Virus record (IMG/VR): IMGVR_UViG_2734482784_000004
Reading direction: 5' to 3' (one strand)
DNA length: 10,560 bases
DNA from: a virus
Lineage: Duplodnaviria; Heunggongvirae; Uroviricota; Caudoviricetes
Below, piece after piece: positions 396 through 8,894 of the stretch. The notes beneath the pieces are model-generated. The model was not told the origin of the DNA. It ran no database searches and saw nothing but the letters and a program-made list of their open reading frames with translations. Numbering within the stretch: position 1 is the stretch's first letter; each line of letters opens with the position of its first letter. The translations under genes and the position numbers were made by a program.

Positions 396-1445
396 TTAGG
401 CCAGCACACCAATTGCCAGCGCGCGATCGATAAATCGAAAAATCAGCTCCAGTTGGGAGCCATACTTCTCTTCAAATGCCACGGTATCCGTATGCAACTC
501 GTCGTGATGCTTTCTGCACAAAGGCAACACAAAGAGATCATGTGCTTTGGTTCCCATTCCGCCCTGCCCGTGACCAATCAGATGATGCGGATCGTCGGCT
601 GGCATACCGCAGCAAGCACACGGCTGTGTCTTAACCCAGCGTGTGTATTTCTCCTTAACCCAACGGTGACGTTTAGGCAGCTTCATGAAAGATTCCGGAG
701 ACTCTGGATCAACGGTGATGCTTACCACCGTCTTTTCCTGTGATGGGTTTTGTTGCTGGTGGGCGTGAGGCAACGGTGCAAGATTTTTTGTGCGCTGTTT
801 CAATATGCTGGTGGCGGTCTGCTCTCCCGGTACGATGTCGCTTTCGCGGTACACCGAGCAGTTTTTTTCCGCTGGTAATCCCAGCGAGCGACGTAATACC
901 ACTTCCGGTAGCGCGTCCGCCACCTGATTGCGGACCGCCCACCAGGATAATTCAGCCAGAGATAATTCACGCTCCTGCGTACCGCTTATTGCGTGACCGA
1001 TGACGTCAATCATCCATGCTGACAGGTTTTGATGAGCAAGTTGCTCGAGTGATTCGGATGTCTGGTCACGCAGCTGGTTGTCGCAGTGCCAGCACAACAC
1101 CATTGCGCCGGTACCATAACGGTGAATAACGGTTTCGCTGTGATGATAATCGCCGTGTGGCCACTGGCAGGATTTAATATGGCGCAACAGCCAGTCAGAC
1201 AATGCACCAGCACCACCAGCAGCACGAATTACCCGTGCGTTACTGAAAAACGGCAGCAATGTTTTGTCTTCCACCAGCGGCTGGCGAACGGCAGGAACGA
1301 CCCCGGACGGCAGATTACGCATGCTTTTCGGTTCCGGCTCCACCAGTACCCGGGTATTGTGGAATACCGGCATGGATTCACGGCCCGGCTTAACGACCAC
1401 CAGCCCGAGTTCCGGTACCAGAACAGGTCGAAGTAATACCCGCAC
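396..1445 (-). CDS. ydfU: DUF968-family prophage protein, YdfU-like (349 aa)
   Basis: 349-codon minus ORF with GTG start at 1443..1445 preceded by GGAG and a 5-nt spacer, TAA stop at 396..398. Length and N-terminus ([14 protein letters not shown]...) match my recollection of Qin YdfU. A C-terminal Cys/His cluster ([21 protein letters not shown]...CRKHHDELH) suggests a metal-binding or HNH-like motif. Confidence 0.75.
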
Positions 1446-1446
1446 G

Positions 1447-1725
1447 TTACCTCCAGATGCGTTGCTGGAATGTACGGGACGGACGCGGTGGGCGTTCGGA
1501 GTAAGGCAATCTGACTGAGATTATCCAGTGACGGTAGTCGAGACTAAGAGCTTTCTTAACCTCGTATCCGCGCCTGCGGTAACACTGAATTATCCATTCA
1601 GCCTGCTCTTCAGTGCATGGAGGGTGCTGGAACCATTCAGACTTGAATGCGTGAGAATACCGCTCGTGCGTGCAGGCAAGAACGGGCGAATTATCAGAAT
1701 TGTAATATTTTACGTTGCGTGCCAT
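1447..1725 (-). CDS. Hypothetical Cys/His-containing small protein (92 aa)
   Basis: ATG at 1723..1725 preceded by GGAG with a 7-nt spacer. TAA stop at 1447..1449 is separated by one base from the GTG start of the downstream DUF968 gene, suggesting translational coupling. No family recognised. Confidence 0.5.
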   Translation of the reverse strand: MARNVKYYNSDNSPVLACTHERYSHAFKSEWFQHPPCTEEQAEWIIQCYRRRGYEVKKALSLDYRHWIISVRLPYSERPPRPSRTFQQRIWR

Positions 1726-1791
1726 CGGTTTTCTCCGGTGGCACGGTGTTACTCAGCGGGAGTTCAGCCCCGCGCAAGATTGTAGATGAGT

Positions 1792-2043
1792 TTATTCTTC
1801 TGCAAAAGCTGAAAAGCCTGCTTTTATTCCGATCTCTTTCAGTGCCTGTAATGAAGTGACAAACTCACCTTCGCGCAAGATAAATCCGTCTGTCACTCGA
1901 CCATCCACAAAATTAATTAACGCAGCCCCATTCTTTCGCAAACACATAATGCGGTAATGACTAACAAGATTTCCATTTTCAACGCACACAGCATAGAGGC
2001 CATCTTCACAAAAAATTTTACGCAGTTCTTCGATGTTCATCAT
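1792..2043 (-). CDS. rem: Rem-like small prophage protein (83 aa)
   Basis: 83-aa minus ORF starting with tandem ATG codons, preceded by GGAAGG with a 6-nt spacer. Position between the YdfU-like gene and hokD, and the 83-aa length, fit the Qin rem gene; the sequence identity is not verified from memory. Confidence 0.55.
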   Translation of the reverse strand: MMNIEELRKIFCEDGLYAVCVENGNLVSHYRIMCLRKNGAALINFVDGRVTDGFILREGEFVTSLQALKEIGIKAGFSAFAEE

Positions 2044-2121
2044 CAGAATCCTTCCGGATAATTAGCTCTCCCCTTTAAGGGACCATCCCTCTTATCCCTG
2101 CGCGCTACTTAAGTATTTTTG

Positions 2122-2151
2122 ATTCTATTCCGGCACCGTCCAGAACTTCAA
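2122..2151 (-). promoter_or_regulatory. Candidate sigma70 promoter for the rem-like gene (-35 TTGAAG, 18-nt spacer, -10 TAGAAT on the minus strand)
   Basis: Hexamers read from the reverse complement of 2122..2151, located just downstream of the hok terminator and about 70 nt upstream of the rem-like start codon. Confidence 0.25.
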
Positions 2152-2159
2152 ACGCGTTG

Positions 2160-2191
2160 AAAATAAAAACAAAAACCCGCCGAAGCGGGTT
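2160..2191 (-). terminator. Rho-independent terminator downstream of hokD
   Basis: On the minus strand, ACCCGC-ttcg-GCGGGT hairpin followed by TTTTTGTTTTTATTTT (complement of 2160..2191). Confidence 0.6.
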
Positions 2192-2259
2192 AAGTGCGGG
2201 TGCGTTGAGGATGCCTGCCACATCAGAGGTGGCGAGGGATTTCTCCCTCGCCGGGTCTC

Positions 2260-2415
2260 TTACTCCTCAGGTTCGTAAGCTGTGAAGACAGCGACCTCCG
2301 TCTGGCCGGTTCGGATTCGTACCTCGCAGAGGTCTTTCCTCGTTACCAGTGCCGTCACTATGACGGTTAAACAGATGACGATCAGGGCGATTAACATCGC
2401 CTTTTGCTGCTTCAT
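2260..2415 (-). CDS. hokD: Hok-family type I toxin (HokD/RelF-like, 51 aa)
   Basis: Translation from the internal ATG at 2413..2415 is MKQQKAMLIALIVICLTVIVTALVTRKDLCEVRIRTGQTEVAVFTAYEPEE, which matches HokD/RelF as I remember it. AAGGAG lies 9 nt upstream. A GC-rich hairpin (2231..2252, GGCGAGGGA-tttc-TCCCTCGCC) follows the stop codon and the terminator lies further downstream. Confidence 0.9.
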   Translation of the reverse strand: MKQQKAMLIALIVICLTVIVTALVTRKDLCEVRIRTGQTEVAVFTAYEPEE

Positions 2416-2672
2416 AGCCTGCTTCTCCTTGCCTTTCGGCACGTAAGAGGCTAACCTACATGTGTCTAGCATGAAATTGGCCTCAGATTAATGTTAAGCG
2501 TCTTGCAGGACGCGTAATGTTAACTGGGGCTTTTCTCTACCTGCCGTTGGTGTTCGTGCCCGAGGCAGATAGCCTCAAGCACCCGCAGTCATTCTACTTA
2601 ACTAAGATTTCCCCGCAAACCGTTTTGTCCAGCACAGTAAATATCCAACTAAACCAATGGAGTTCGCTGTAT

Positions 2673-2852
2673 TTACCGCCAGTATTCAATGCACATGACC
2701 GCCATGAACACCCCTAAAAAAAGGGCATTTATATATCCAAATATTAATATCAAAACATCAACTTTTTCCATATACCTTGCTGTGAAGATGATGGGCATAC
2801 ATGATGCGAACAACCAGAACGCAACAAACAAAAACTGCAATGCGTTTTTCAT
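2673..2852 (-). CDS. Small predicted two-helix membrane protein (59 aa) in an AT-rich islet
   Basis: ATG at 2850..2852 preceded by GGGGGA; the ORF-track GTG at 2891 has GAGG directly abutting it, so the shorter form is preferred. The product (MKNALQFLFVAFWLFASCMPIIF...VDVLILIFGYINALFLGVFMAVMCIEYWR) has two hydrophobic stretches. Surrounding DNA is visibly AT-rich. Confidence 0.4.
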   Translation of the reverse strand: MKNALQFLFVAFWLFASCMPIIFTARYMEKVDVLILIFGYINALFLGVFMAVMCIEYWR

Positions 2853-3215
2853 TATTCCCCCTACAATCAATGTGCAATAACATTTAAACACACCTCAATT
2901 TAGCCGGACATATAAATATCTAAACCAGAAAAAATCACTTACATAGCGTTACAAACTCTTTAGTCTAAATATTCATCGTAAAACATTCCCCATACTTATC
3001 AGCCCGTTCTGCGCCAGGTAGCTCATTGCCTTATCTGGGAACCTGTAATCAGGTTTCCGGATGCTGGTGGATTTTCGCGTTTTAGTTGTTCATAAAAGTG
3101 CACAGCTTTAACCAGTTCTTCTGATGTAACCGGGACTGGCGGGGCAGTGAATAAGGCCTGAATTTCATAGTTCGGCCTATCGTTACAATCCTCTTTTTTC
3201 GGTACATATTTCCAG

Positions 3216-3338
3216 TCACCAGACCACTACTTCCCCTGAAAGTCCGTAACGCCTTTTTTTCACGTAGCGATATCGCCATGCCACTGTTTTTGCTTGCCCC
3301 GCCGTTTCATGCCCTTCCTGATAATTAACCTCGCTCAT
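3216..3338 (-). CDS. Hypothetical 40-aa basic peptide, start overlapping the stop of the upstream 58-aa ORF (ATGA)
   Basis: ATG at 3336..3338 overlaps the TGA at 3335..3337 of the upstream ORF. Translation MSEVNYQEGHETAGQAKTVAWRYRYVKKRRYGLSGEVVVW. Below the ORF-track length cutoff and competes with a different-frame 65-aa ORF at 3082..3279. Confidence 0.25.
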   Translation of the reverse strand: MSEVNYQEGHETAGQAKTVAWRYRYVKKRRYGLSGEVVVW

Positions 3339-3511
3339 TCATCGCCCCACTCATCACAATATGCTTCGACCGGAGTTTTTCCTGCTTCATAATCATCACG
3401 CCATGCTTCAGCATCAGCAGCACTGCTACCACGTAACTCTGCATAGTCCATTAACAGTTCATGCCATTCTTCAAAACCGACGTTGTATTTAGTTGAACCA
3501 AAATCAGCCAT
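3335..3511 (-). CDS. Hypothetical small acidic protein (58 aa)
   Basis: ATG at 3509..3511 preceded by GAAGAGGAAG about 6 to 8 nt upstream. Translation MADFGSTKYNVGFEEWHELLMDYAELRGSSAADAEAWRDDYEAGKTPVEAYCDEWGDE is strongly acidic with a protein-like composition. Not in the ORF track because it is under 60 aa. Confidence 0.45.
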   Translation of the reverse strand: MADFGSTKYNVGFEEWHELLMDYAELRGSSAADAEAWRDDYEAGKTPVEAYCDEWGDE

Positions 3512-3548
3512 TTTGTTCTTCCTCTTCGTCTTTTATTTCGTGATATGA

Positions 3549-3686
3549 TTAATTGCAGTAGTTAAAGAAAATATCTTTTGCTTCGTCATGTATTTCATCA
3601 GGCGTCGCATCATTATCCACTTCGAATTCATCCTCGAAATCTCCACCGGCTATTCCCGTTTCAATAATTATTTTAAACTTTCGCAT
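3549..3686 (-). CDS. Hypothetical small acidic protein (45 aa)
   Basis: ATG at 3684..3686, TAA at 3549..3551. Translation MRKFKIIIETGIAGGDFEDEFEVDNDATPDEIHDEAKDIFFNYCN. AGGAGG lies upstream but is separated from the ATG by a GC hairpin (3698..3715). Confidence 0.3.
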   Translation of the reverse strand: MRKFKIIIETGIAGGDFEDEFEVDNDATPDEIHDEAKDIFFNYCN

Positions 3687-3697
3687 TTAACTACCGC

Positions 3698-3715
3698 CCT
3701 TTCGGGCGGCCTCCT
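3698..3715 (-). promoter_or_regulatory. GC-rich hairpin (GCCGCCC-gaaa-GGGCGGT on the minus strand) between an AGGAGG motif and the start of the 45-aa ORF
   Basis: Inverted repeat read directly from the sequence. No U-run follows on either strand, so it is unlikely to be an intrinsic terminator; it could bring the SD-like motif close to the start codon or act as an RNA processing or stability element. Confidence 0.3.
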
Positions 3716-4193
3716 GATGTTCTGAGGGTGCAGAAATCCCTCCGGTTAAGGATTAAATTTTTAACAGTGCTAAATTTAATTATTCAGTTCTGGATTTTGT
3801 CACCCTGCGTATCCGCGCTTTCCCGTTACGCTCAATCTGAATTAGCTTTTCTATATTTTTTCGCCTTTCCCGTTCCTCCTGGCGCAAGAGCCTTACATCA
3901 TCTGCCAGTCTGGTTTCTCTTTTCGCCACAGAGAGCATCCAGTCAAATGGCTCCACAACTGCACCTCAGATTTTACAGCGGACCTGACGCTCTTTTTCGT
4001 CAACCCGGACAGAAGCGTGATGGCAATATGGTCTTTCCGATGGCTCATAAAGAAAATTAACCTGATTACGAGGGTCATCCTCTTTTATCGGAAATAAAAC
4101 GATATTGCTTAACTAATCCTCTGGTTTTATTTCCATGCTCCTCTCCTTTGATGCGAATGCCAGCGGTAATTGAAGCCTGATAGCTAATTTCAC

Positions 4194-4616
4194 TCACAGT
4201 ACCGCCTCCTGAAAATTACCCTGATAGAAAGCCAGTACACGCTGCATAGCTTCACTCTTCCGGCACTCGCGACAGATTATGTTTAGACGACTGTCGTAGC
4301 GACGTATTTCTCCATCAGGTAACGACCAGATAAGGTCCGGATCAACCACAGCTGTTTTCTTCACCTTTGCCCTCGAGAGTTTTTTGCGGGCGTTTTGCCA
4401 GTCCTTACGCGCCTGTTCAGACGGGAATAACCCGTAGCCGGAGTTGTATACATCGCCACTGGCTACCAGCTCTCTGGCAAGAACGCTCATCAGATATCTA
4501 GTCGCACCTGTTTTAGCTTCCAGTTGCCGTAACGTCTCACGACCGCTCTGGCGCACGAGTTCCACCACCTGCCCTTTAATTTTTTCCCGCTCTTCTTGTG
4601 TAAAAACTTTTGCCAC
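4194..4616 (-). CDS. Hypothetical 140-aa protein, possible regulator
   Basis: GTG start at 4614..4616 preceded by AAGGGGGA with a 3 to 4-nt spacer; TGA at 4194..4196. Basic and soluble, with a helix-rich N-terminus (RETLRQLEAKTGATRYLMSVLAREL) that could be HTH-like. No family confidently recognised. Confidence 0.65.
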   Translation of the reverse strand: MAKVFTQEEREKIKGQVVELVRQSGRETLRQLEAKTGATRYLMSVLARELVASGDVYNSGYGLFPSEQARKDWQNARKKLSRAKVKKTAVVDPDLIWSLPDGEIRRYDSRLNIICRECRKSEAMQRVLAFYQGNFQEAVL

Positions 4617-4656
4617 AAGTCCCCCTTAAAATTACCTCATGACCTGAAATCAAAAC

Positions 4657-4785
4657 TTATCCTCTGAAACCAGGCGGAATTTCTGTATCCGGTTCAGAAA
4701 TATGATTAACACAACGCTGTACAGGTGAACGCCCCAGGCGGATGACCAGTTCGTCCCATTTTTCGCGGAGCTTTGACGGGCTCAT
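4657..4785 (-). CDS. Possible 42-aa upstream ORF
   Basis: ATG at 4783..4785, TAA at 4657..4659, translation MSPSKLREKWDELVIRLGRSPVQRCVNHISEPDTEIPPGFRG. Weak ribosome-binding site; lies in the divergent intergenic region and may be non-coding. Confidence 0.2.
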   Translation of the reverse strand: MSPSKLREKWDELVIRLGRSPVQRCVNHISEPDTEIPPGFRG

Positions 4786-4942
4786 GATGTTTTTTACCCA
4801 GAATGGATCCCGCTGTATGTGGCGTGTTCCCCAACCAGGACGGTACGTTCACCGCGATGACATATACCAAAAGCAAAACGTTTAAAACCGAATCTGGCGC
4901 GCGTTGCTGGTTAGCCAGAAACACTGACTGATGAGGCTGACG

Positions 4943-5752: not shown

Positions 5753-5810
5753 TTTCTGGTGACGTTTGGCGGTATCAGTTTTACTCCGTGACTGCTCTGC
5801 CGCCGTTTTT
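5753..5810 (+). ncRNA. dicF: DicF small regulatory RNA (ftsZ-targeting, Hfq-dependent)
   Basis: Sequence TTTCTGGTGACGTTTGGCGGTATCAGTTTTACTCCGTGACTGCTCTGCCGCC followed by GTTTTT matches DicF as I remember it, including the GGCGG/CCGCC terminator stem and U-tail. It lies immediately upstream of dicB, as in Qin. Confidence 0.85.
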
Positions 5811-5979
5811 AAAGTGAATTTTGTGATGCGGTGAATGCGGCTAAGCGCACGCGGAACAGTTAAAACCAAAAACAGTGTTATGGGTGGATTCTCTGTATCC
5901 GGCGTTAATTGTTAACTGGTTAACGTCACCTGGAGGCACCAGGCACTGCATCACAAAATTCATTGTTGAGGACGCGATA

Positions 5980-6168
5980 ATGAAAACGTTATTACCAAAC
6001 GTTAATACGTCTGAAGGTTGTTTTGAAATTGGTGTCACTATCAGTAACCCTGTATTTACTGAAGATGCCATTAACAAGAGAAAACAAGAACGGGAGCTAT
6101 TAAATAAAATATGCATTGTTTCAATGCTGGCTCGTTTACGTCTGATGCCAAAAGGATGTGCACAATGA
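5980..6168 (+). CDS. dicB: Cell-division inhibitor DicB (62 aa)
   Basis: ATG at 5980 preceded by GAGGA with a 7-nt spacer. Translation MKTLLPNVNTSEGCFEIGVTISNPVFTEDAINKRKQERELLNKICIVSMLARLRLMPKGCAQ corresponds to K-12 DicB from memory. The ORF-track 97-aa form is an in-frame upstream extension. Confidence 0.9.
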   Translation: MKTLLPNVNTSEGCFEIGVTISNPVFTEDAINKRKQERELLNKICIVSMLARLRLMPKGCAQ

Positions 6169-6449: not shown

Positions 6450-8894
6450 ATGAGTAAAGTCTTTATTTGCGCCGCTATTCCTGACGAACTGGCAACAAGG
6501 GAAGAAGGCGCTGTGGCTGTAGCCACAGCCATTGAAGCTGGCGACGAACGCCGTGCTCGAGCAAAATTTCACTGGCAGTTCCTGGAACATTATCCGGCTG
6601 CTCAGGACTGCGCTTATAAATTTATTGTCTGCGAGGATAAACCTGGCATACCCCGCCCTGCCCTCGATTCATGGGATGCTGAATATATGCAGGAAAACCG
6701 CTGGGATGAGGAGTCTGCTTCTTTTGTCCCGGTTGAGACTAAATCCGATCCGATGAACGTCACTTTTGACAAGCTGGCCCCTGAAGTACAGAACGCTGTC
6801 ATGGTTAAGTTCGACACATGTGAAAACATCACCGTTGATATGGTTATTAGCGCACAGGAATTGTTGCAGGAAGACATGGCAACATTCGACGGACATATCG
6901 TTGAAGCGTTGATGAAAATGCCAGAAGTTAACGCCATGTTTCCGGAGCTTAAGTTGCACGCCATTGGGTGGGTTAAGCATAAATGTATTCCTGGTGCTAA
7001 ATGGCCCGAAATTCAGGCAGAGATGCGCATCTGGAAAAAACGTCGCGAAGGTGAACGCAAGGAAACCGGAAAATACACGTCTGTTGTTGATCTCGCCCGC
7101 ACCAGAGCCAATCAACAGTACACTGAAAATTCAACAGGAAAAATCAGCCCGGTCATTGCTGCCATTCATCGCGAATACAAGCAGACATGGAAAACACTGG
7201 ATGACGAACTGGCCTACGCTCTCTGGCCTGGTGATGTGGATGCCGGAAACATTGACGGCAGCATCCATCGCTGGGCAAAAAAAGAAGTTATCGACAACGA
7301 CCGCGAAGACTGGAAGCGTATCTCGGCATCAATGCGCAAACAGCCTGATGCCCTTCGCTGCGCCCGCCAAACTATTTTTGGCCTTGTCCGTGAGCGTCCG
7401 ATCGACATTCACAAAGATCCCGTAGCACTGAACAAATATATCTGCGAATACCTGACGACAAAGGGCGTGTTTGAGAATGAAGAAACAGACCTGGGCACTG
7501 TTGATGTTCTCCAGTCATCAGAAACACAAACTGATGCAGTGGAAACTGAGGTATCTGATATCCCAAAAAATGAAACCGCGCCGGAAGCTGAACCATCTGT
7601 AGAGCGTGAGGGGCCGTTCTATTTCCTCTTCGCAGATAAGGACGGAGAAAAATACGGTCGCGCAAACAAACTTTCTGGTCTGGATAAGGCACTGGCTGCT
7701 GGCGCCACTGAAATCACAAAAGAAGAATATTTTGCCCGAAAAAATGGCACATACACGGGCTTACCGCAAAATGTAGATACCGCTGAAGATTCAGAACAAC
7801 CAGAACCGATAAAAGTTACCGCTGACGAAGTAAACAAAATTATGCAGGCAGCCAATATCAGCCAGCCTGACGCCGATAAGTTGCTTGCTGCATCACGTGG
7901 TGAATTTGTTGAAGGGATTAGTGACCCGAATGATCCGAAATGGGTTAAGGGGATCCAGACCCGCGATTCTGTGAACCAGAACCAGCATGAATCGGAACGG
8001 AACTACCAAAAAGCGGAACAAAACAGCCCAAATGCGTTACAAAACGAGCCAGAAACGAAACAGCCTGAACCAGTGGCGCAACAGGAAGTGGAAAAAGTCT
8101 GCACCGCCTGCGGTCAGACCGGCGGCGGCAACTGCCCTGATTGTGGCGCGGTGATGGGCGACGCAACATACCAAGAAACATTCGATGAAGAGTATCAGGT
8201 TGAAGTTCAGGAAGATGATCCGGAGGAAATGGAAGGCGCTGAACATCCACACAAGGAGAACACTGGCGGCAATCAGCATCACAATAGCGATAATGAAACT
8301 GGCGAGACGGCAGATCACTCAATTAAGGTGAACGGTCATCACGAAATCACATCCACCAGCAGGACGTGTGACCATCTAATGATCGACCTTGAAACCATGG
8401 GAAAAAATCCTGATGCCCCGATCATCTCAATAGGTGCAATATTTTTCGATCCGCAAACCGGAGATATGGGACCGGAATTTAGTAAGACTATCGATCTGGA
8501 AACTGCTGGCGGAGTCATTGATCGGGACACCATTAAATGGTGGCTTAAGCAATCACGCGAAGCGCAATCTGCCATTATGACCGATGAAATCCCGTTAGAT
8601 GATGCACTGTTACAATTGCGGGAATTTATCGACGAAAACTCCGGTGAATTTTTTGTTCAGGTTTGGGGAAATGGAGCCAACTTCGACAACACGATTTTGC
8701 GCCGTTCATACGAACGGCAGGGGATCCCCTGCCCGTGGCGTTACTACAACGATCGCGATGTACGCACAATCGTTGAGCTGGGGAAAGCCATAGACTTCGA
8801 TGCCAGAACGGCTATTCCATTCGAAGGTGAGCGCCATAATGCACTTGATGACGCCCGTTACCAGGCAAAATACGTTTCAGTTATCTGGCAATAA
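6450..8894 (+). CDS. RecE-like (exodeoxyribonuclease VIII family) protein with C-terminal DnaQ-like DEDDh 3'-5' exonuclease domain; full-length YdfE-type (814 aa)
   Basis: ATG at 6450, TAA at 8892..8894. The central segment ([30 protein letters not shown]...[21 protein letters not shown]...[10 protein letters not shown]) resembles the RecE linker and zinc-ribbon region as I recall it. The C-terminus carries DEDDh-type motifs ([27 protein letters not shown]) rather than a RecE-type 5'-3' nuclease fold. The N-terminus resembles the truncated K-12 YdfE. Confidence 0.85.

Follow-up and report, generated by a model that had tools for sequence, protein, structure and literature searches.

A putatively complete hok/mok/sok toxin-antitoxin cassette of the hokD/hokW lineage in a Qin-like lambdoid prophage

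Introduction

The closest described relatives of the locus analysed here are the hok/sok (parB) system of plasmid R1, the hokW-mokW-sokW locus of the phages 933W and Sp5, and hokD (relF) of the Qin prophage of Escherichia coli K-12. In R1, the mRNA elements tac and fbi, the ucb box and the mok Shine-Dalgarno sequence GAGG are combined with a Sok promoter overlapping the hok Shine-Dalgarno region, a Sok terminator hairpin and a 3' stem-loop, and it is the translation of mok that matters, not its product (PMC9841398). The R1 Hok peptide is 44% identical to HokW (PMC8621323). The record of phage 933W (AF125520, Plunkett et al.) carries annotations for hokW, mokW and a 71-nt sokW antisense RNA. 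The Sp5 copy has been studied experimentally: HokW is toxic and located in the inner membrane, sokW RNA and hokW mRNA are both visible on northern blots, and RNase III and Hfq contribute to the system (Takada et al. 2021, PMC8621323). The -10 element of sokW was shown with the mutagenic primers YO-421/422 to be TAACCT; its replacement abolished antitoxin activity, the protection lost in the mutant being partly restored in trans, and upon prophage induction sokW disappears and HokW speeds lysis (PMC8621323). K-12 hokD belongs to the relBEF operon; according to PMC12214031, which cites Pedersen & Gerdes 1999, it lost its activity when parts of the canonical system were eliminated in a genomic rearrangement.

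The window considered here, i.e., the whole stretch of 10,560 nucleotides from a Caudoviricetes record of IMG/VR (IMGVR_UViG_2734482784_000004), carries a hok gene on its minus strand. The first-pass annotation had taken its product for HokD, had remarked on the lack of relBE genes and on a structured region upstream, and had asked whether antisense control of the mok/sok type is present. Judged by its sequence, the region 2165-2605 (~440 bp) very probably holds the whole of a hok/mok/sok type I toxin-antitoxin cassette that belongs to the hokD/hokW lineage and whose control elements are all of the hokW/sokW type.

Results

The toxin gene occupies positions 2260..2415 of the minus strand, is preceded by the Shine-Dalgarno sequence GGAG (2428..2425) and encodes a peptide of 51 residues, MKQQKAMLIALIVICLTVIVTALVTRKDLCEVRIRTGQTEVAVFTAYEPEE, which matches the Pfam family PF01848 (HOK_GEF) with 82.9 bits against a cut-off of 22. 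In a tblastn comparison the peptide proved identical to HokD of K-12 MG1655 at 51 of 51 positions, in agreement with its initial identification. HokW of 933W is identical at 47 of 51 positions, with four differing residues at the C-terminus (TAYEPEE in the window, VDYESEK in 933W). The Tyr47 codon of hok, UAC, is followed by G (2277..2274, minus) and thus presents the TadA editing motif UACG; for hokD mRNA, about 6% A-to-I editing with recoding of Tyr to Cys has been reported (PMC12214031). A TadA-like, tRNA-like stem-loop around this motif was considered and rejected, the local fold being no better than those of shuffled sequences (z -0.06).

Positions 2188-2626 are 99% identical to phage mEp460 and 92.5% identical, over 439 bp, to 933W. 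The order of the elements and an extended Sok terminator hairpin containing two repeats are common to the window and 933W/Sp5, and the stretch from ACACATG to the hok AUG, comprising the mok region and the -35, spacer and -10 of the Sok promoter, is base-for-base identical. Besides the Hok C-terminus, the differences are a few substitutions in the Sok 5' tail and mok start region, an intrinsic terminator of the window's own past fbi, where the 933W sequence diverges, and the place in the phage genome, the window locus having rem as one neighbour and the early region of a Qin-like prophage as the other. The architecture described above for R1 is likewise common with the window, and the blocks GCTTGAGGCT.TCTGCCTC, AGCCTCTTAC and GCAAGGAGAAG are conserved between R1-type loci and the window. 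The Rfam family sok (RF01794), whose model in fact represents the leader of the hok mRNA as far as the hok AUG, matches positions 2584..2410 on the hok strand along the full model (1-157) with 107.8 bits, the gathering score being 59. The locus departs substantially from this model at one place only: the tip of the model's second hairpin carries 16 extra nucleotides, corresponding exactly to the GC hairpin noted in the first-pass annotation.

The full-length hok (mok-hok) mRNA is predicted to span 2165..2584 (minus, ~420 nt), running from GGGUGCUUGAGG, its conserved 5' end, to the T run of an intrinsic terminator (2164..2191, minus; hairpin 2191..2174). The promoter read from the sequence upstream of it (2591..2619, minus) would consist of a -10 TAGAAT at 2596..2591 and a weak -35, TTTGCG/TTGCGG, at ~2619..2613. 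The conserved GGGTGC/GGCGC 5' end follows this -10 at a distance of 6 nt, and other hok lineages have TATAAT or TAGAAT at equal spacing. Neither promoter, that of hok or that of Sok, was picked up by a simple sigma-70 consensus scan of positions 2100-2700, since the hexamers of both score below its thresholds, and the promoter assignments therefore rest on homology to 933W/Sp5 and to R1-type loci.

When folded at full length (2586..2165), the hok mRNA reaches -177.5 kcal/mol (z -7.5), with its 5' end paired to its 3' end. The 5' partner is tac (GGGUGCUUGAGG, 2573..2584, minus), and the 3' partner is the complementary fbi element (UCCUCAACGCACCCGC, in RNA CCUCAACGCACCCGC; 2196..2211, minus), their duplex amounting to -21.5 kcal/mol. 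A set of 99 unique hok mRNAs, drawn from plasmids, phages and many Enterobacterales, shows concerted changes of the 5' end and its 3' partner, giving such pairs as GGCGCUUGAGG/…AAGCGCC, GGGUGCUCUGGAUC/GAUCCAUGAGCACCC, GGGCGCCUGAGGC/GCCUUCAGGCGCCC and GGGUGCUUGAGAC/GGCUCAAGCACCC, with compensatory changes among the R1-type, Serratia, Buttiauxella, Pantoea and hokD/W lineages. The window carries the majority pair of its own lineage.

The ucb or anti-Shine-Dalgarno box (AAAAGCCCCAG, in RNA AGCCCCAG; 2524..2534, minus) pairs in the full-length fold with CUGAGGC, the segment that holds the mok Shine-Dalgarno sequence. In the Rfam consensus and in the minimum free energy (MFE) structure of the first 59 nt (-26.2 kcal/mol), its AGCCCC is paired instead with tac. 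An enforced tac/ucb stem in the mRNA truncated before fbi lies 3.2 kcal/mol above the MFE and leaves a target hairpin with the loop CUAGACA in place. The unconstrained MFE of the truncated mRNA contains a 5' metastable hairpin and not the tac/ucb stem; this hairpin corresponds to the metastable structure described for R1 (PMC9841398).

The mok reading frame (2260..2472, minus; 70 codons) opens with an AUG at 2472, shares the frame of hok, which starts 57 nt further on, and stays open through the hok AUG. Eight nucleotides upstream of the mok AUG, a Shine-Dalgarno sequence GAGG can be read at 2481..2484 (minus), which is sequestered in the full-length mRNA fold. The Mok/Hok product is 65/70 (93%) identical to MokW of 933W. 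Among hok lineages the mok start is offset by 57 nt (in frame), by 58 nt (+1 frame, as in true R1) or by 56 nt (+2 frame), the in-frame offset of the window being that of most lineages. This variability of the frame fits the published view, cited above, that mok translation counts rather than its product (PMC9841398). Some Serratia loci have no AUG-initiated mok at all.

Beyond the toxin gene, 8 nt past its stop codon, a perfect hairpin of 9 bp is found at 2231..2252 (minus; GGCGAGGGA/TCCCTCGCC), with -19.7 kcal/mol and z -4.7. Relative to 933W it shows one compensatory pair change, from A·U to G·C. By analogy with the R1 system (PMC9841398), it is likely the 3' stem-loop that protects hok mRNA once this has been processed to its truncated form. 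Both downstream features claimed initially, the GC hairpin after the stop codon and the intrinsic terminator, were thus recovered.

On the opposite strand, the Sok promoter (2429..2457, plus) is assigned by homology to a -35 TTGCCT at 2429-2434 and a -10 TAACCT at 2452-2457, separated by a 17-nt spacer; its position matches that of TTGCGC/TATCCT in the R1-type locus. The coordinates of the Sok RNA itself, 2464..2534 (plus, ~71 nt), were transferred from the sokW feature of 933W. The RNA so delimited would begin with a single-stranded 5' tail of 15 nt covering the mok start, continue with a terminator hairpin at 2479-2530 and end in UUUU at 2531-2534, and its predicted fold (-28.7 kcal/mol, z -5.1) consists of precisely this 15-nt tail and a terminator hairpin of 23 bp. 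With a promoter and a terminator of its own and with complementarity to the mok start, Sok has the attributes of a cis-encoded antisense RNA as far as these can be read from the DNA.

The hairpin and the flanking direct repeats that had been described as a structured region upstream of hok belong to this terminator. Both are present as described, save that the first repeat lies at 2489-2497, one base off the 2488-2496 given initially. The repeat, TAATGTTAA, recurs at 2515-2523; these are its only two copies in the window, with 0.11 expected from shuffles. Between them lie GCGTC (2498-2502), TTGCAG (2503-2508), GACGC (2509-2513) and G2514. The segment 2489..2523 makes up the upper portion of the Sok terminator stem-loop, which reads on the Sok strand GCCUCAG-A-UUAAUGUUA-A-GCGUCU-UGCA-GGACGC-G-UAAUGUUAA-CUGGGGC-UUUU. 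If G·U pairs are allowed, UUAAUGUUAA is complementary to itself, so that the two direct repeats of the DNA can pair with each other in the RNA. The repeats and the GC-rich tip are thereby predicted to extend the Sok terminator to 23 bp. Folded alone, the hairpin reaches -26.6 kcal/mol on the Sok strand and -17.6 kcal/mol on the hok strand, where the G·U pairs turn into A·C mismatches. A structured upstream region is therefore confirmed, although not as a separate feature, since it is the Sok terminator stem-loop together with its mirror in the hok mRNA leader.

In every hok lineage tabulated, the R1-type sequences being outside this tabulation, the equivalent position carries a Sok terminator hairpin with a U run after it. 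In the hokD/hokW lineage the hairpin measures 51 nt and -22 to -30 kcal/mol (window about -27), while in the other lineages measured it has 30-35 nt, -15 to -21 kcal/mol and many compensatory changes in the stem. The insert formed by the repeats and the tip is 37 nt long in 92 of the 92 tabulated matches of the hokD/hokW lineage (mostly matches on viral contigs, plus phage and genome loci), with few substitutions, and it is not found in other hok lineages. Within the lineage, variants of the extended hairpin are too few to prove it by covariation, and some of them break pairs. Given this constant length and the few substitutions, the extension is supported by thermodynamics and position and not by within-lineage covariation. 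The lineage-specific extension of the Sok terminator is not discussed in the hok/sok papers cited here.

Two variants of this hairpin were encountered among related sequences. In a few relatives (viral contigs L143, L103, L069, L091 and L148), the 6-nt loop of the GC tip, equivalent to 2503-2508, is inverted, so that the hok strand reads TTGCAG and not CTGCAA, which suggests a small polymorphism by inversion of the loop, mediated by the stem. In an uncultured Enterobacteriaceae MAG (L006, ~240-290), a 16-nt tandem duplication, TTAACATCAACCTGAG x2, occupies the equivalent spot in the Sok terminator hairpin; as it is independent, duplication at this spot appears to have arisen more than once.

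Comparison with K-12 shows how the two hokD contexts differ. From the terminator to position 2429, 15 nt upstream of the hok AUG, the DNA of the K-12 Qin hokD locus is identical to the window but for one base, and the homology ends at 2429..2430; past this point the K-12 sequence runs on into relE, at the 3' end of that gene. With the Sok -35 and all that lies upstream of it cut off at this breakpoint, K-12 lacks the promoter of hok, tac, ucb, the start of mok, and Sok with its promoter, and carries relE-relB in their place. Since the homology stops so close to the hok ATG, K-12 has lost the leader, mok and sok, and remnants of a hok leader were found nowhere else in K-12 Qin. On a larger scale, window positions 396-2429 are 94% identical to the K-12 ydfU-rem-hokD region, and 2430-4820 has no counterpart in K-12 Qin; because this segment and the K-12 segment from relE to ydfX are unrelated, the difference points to mosaic replacement and not to a simple insertion.

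The absence of relBE, noticed initially, is real: K-12 RelE and RelB have no tblastn match anywhere in the 10.5-kb window, and relB and relE do not lie directly upstream of hokD as they do in the relBEF operon. Its reading as an anomaly does not hold. Queries of 121 bp, with at least 80% of the query covered, found the intact junction (window 2370-2490) in 4027 of 5426 complete E. coli genomes (~74%), and the K-12 relE-hokD junction in 1167 of them (~22%). K-12 relBE-hokD is thus the derived and minority form, a rearranged and truncated derivative. Moreover, 1057 records match window positions 2100-2720 at 99% identity or more, and PGAP labels the gene hokD.

The cassette has rem on one side and genes of unknown function on the other, and belongs to the nin-like region of a Qin-like lambdoid prophage. 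The assignment to a Qin-like prophage follows from the presence of the DicF sRNA (5754-5805, plus; Rfam RF00039, 72.5 bits) and, past it, of DicB (within 5875-6168), a ydfD-like ORF, an intact exonuclease of 814 aa (6450-8894), xis and an integrase. The K-12 counterpart of the exonuclease is truncated by IS2. Although dicF and dicB are present, a dicA/dicC-like repressor pair was not evident at 4617-4803. An AT-rich region just upstream of the hok promoter contains a strongly hydrophobic ORF of 72 aa (2673-2891, minus), which has no Pfam match and is unannotated in the RefSeq genome examined.

Discussion

The locus is an ordinary copy of the already described, RNA-controlled hok/sok toxin module of the hokW/sokW type, residing in a Qin-like prophage of E. 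coli. Every element of the module is present, in position and conserved, so that the question of mok/sok-type antisense control raised in the first-pass annotation may be answered in the affirmative on sequence grounds; in particular, the antisense promoter whose absence would have spoken against such control is there, and it is identical to the validated promoter of sokW in 933W/Sp5. What emerges is a correction of perspective: the textbook relBE-hokD arrangement of K-12 is the truncated derivative, and the form found in the window is the common, intact one. There is a practical side to this as well: where annotation stops at "hokD", as it does in thousands of genomes, the locus also encodes a mok frame and a Sok RNA that has gone unannotated.

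By analogy with the work on R1 and Sp5, a scheme may be proposed for the transcription, 3' processing, refolding, toxicity and antitoxin action of the window copy. A weak constitutive promoter would give rise to a stable hok mRNA of ~420 nt, in which the 5' tac would pair with the 3' fbi and the ucb box would mask the mok ribosome-binding site; owing to this pairing and masking, the full-length mRNA is proposed to be inaccessible to translation and to Sok alike. As its 3' end is slowly trimmed down to the post-stop hairpin, fbi would be lost, whereupon tac would pair with ucb, and the mok Shine-Dalgarno sequence and the Sok target would be freed. Ribosomes starting at mok would then run into the hok start, and Hok, a membrane-depolarising peptide, would be made. 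Meanwhile, the convergent promoter TTGCCT-17-TAACCT would supply a labile Sok RNA of ~71 nt, the 5' tail of which could pair with the mok start region, blocking translation and triggering cleavage of the duplex.

Other readings of the locus concern either its origin or its activity. That the upstream region is a remnant of relE or relBE, the window having been derived from a K-12-like relBEF operon by deletion, has a negligible probability and can be regarded as refuted: there is no RelE or RelB protein match, comparison of K-12 relBE DNA with the window yielded only chance matches of 10-18 nt (E >= 0.23), positions 2430-2584 align instead with leaders of hok loci from R1-type plasmids, from 933W and from many Enterobacterales, and K-12 keeps no leader anywhere in Qin. 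A sequence-intact but functionally silent locus, i.e., a decaying chromosomal hok copy without active toxin-antitoxin behaviour, appears very unlikely. The surrounding prophage does look cryptic, being mosaic relative to K-12 and showing no dicA/dicC-like repressor pair, and both promoters are poor matches to the consensus. Furthermore, chromosomal hokA, hokB and hokC gave no post-segregational killing in earlier tests (summarised in bioRxiv 10.1101/2025.08.07.668861), so that an intact sequence is no guarantee of classical killing activity; it is on account of these loci that a small probability is kept for a silent copy. Against decay stand the intactness of every regulatory element, the identity of the peptide to HokD, which served as a known-toxic control in the overexpression assays of a 2025 survey (bioRxiv 10.1101/2025.08.07.668861), the activity of the sister locus hokW-sokW with its identical Sok promoter (PMC8621323), and the copies of at least 99% identity in more than 1000 records, which argue for maintenance.

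Within the hok/mok/sok cassette, only the lengthening of the Sok terminator hairpin in the hokD/hokW lineage is mildly unexplored. The hairpin and its 9-bp repeats might be the footprint of a small insertion or duplication, resembling a target-site duplication and having no function of its own. The insertion is indeed lineage-specific when compared with the Rfam consensus and all other hok lineages, the independent 16-nt tandem duplication in the Enterobacteriaceae MAG affects the equivalent spot, and the 6-nt loop occurs in both orientations among relatives, as expected of an unconstrained loop. Still, we consider a mere footprint unlikely, as the repeats and tip keep their 37 nt in all 92 tabulated matches of the lineage, the repeats form a continuous stem exactly inside the Sok terminator, and no transposase or terminal-repeat element is associated with them; moreover, such a footprint would concern origin only and is compatible with the hok/mok/sok cassette. 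It is tempting to speculate, conversely, that the lengthened terminator is functional, making SokD/SokW a substrate of RNase III or a better client of Hfq and thereby adjusting how fast Sok is turned over, such that induction of the prophage, and not loss of the element, would set off the toxin. The chances of this being so seem slim; if true, the module would be a lysis-timing device specific to lambdoid prophages.

In the course of the lineage comparison, hok leaders of the E. coli/plasmid type were also seen on short contigs (L015, L049, L014, L044, L052 and L032) labelled as Xanthomonas pisi, Streptomyces morookaense, Collinsella, Ferruginibacter, Oscillibacter and Haemophilus, most likely as a result of assembly contamination.
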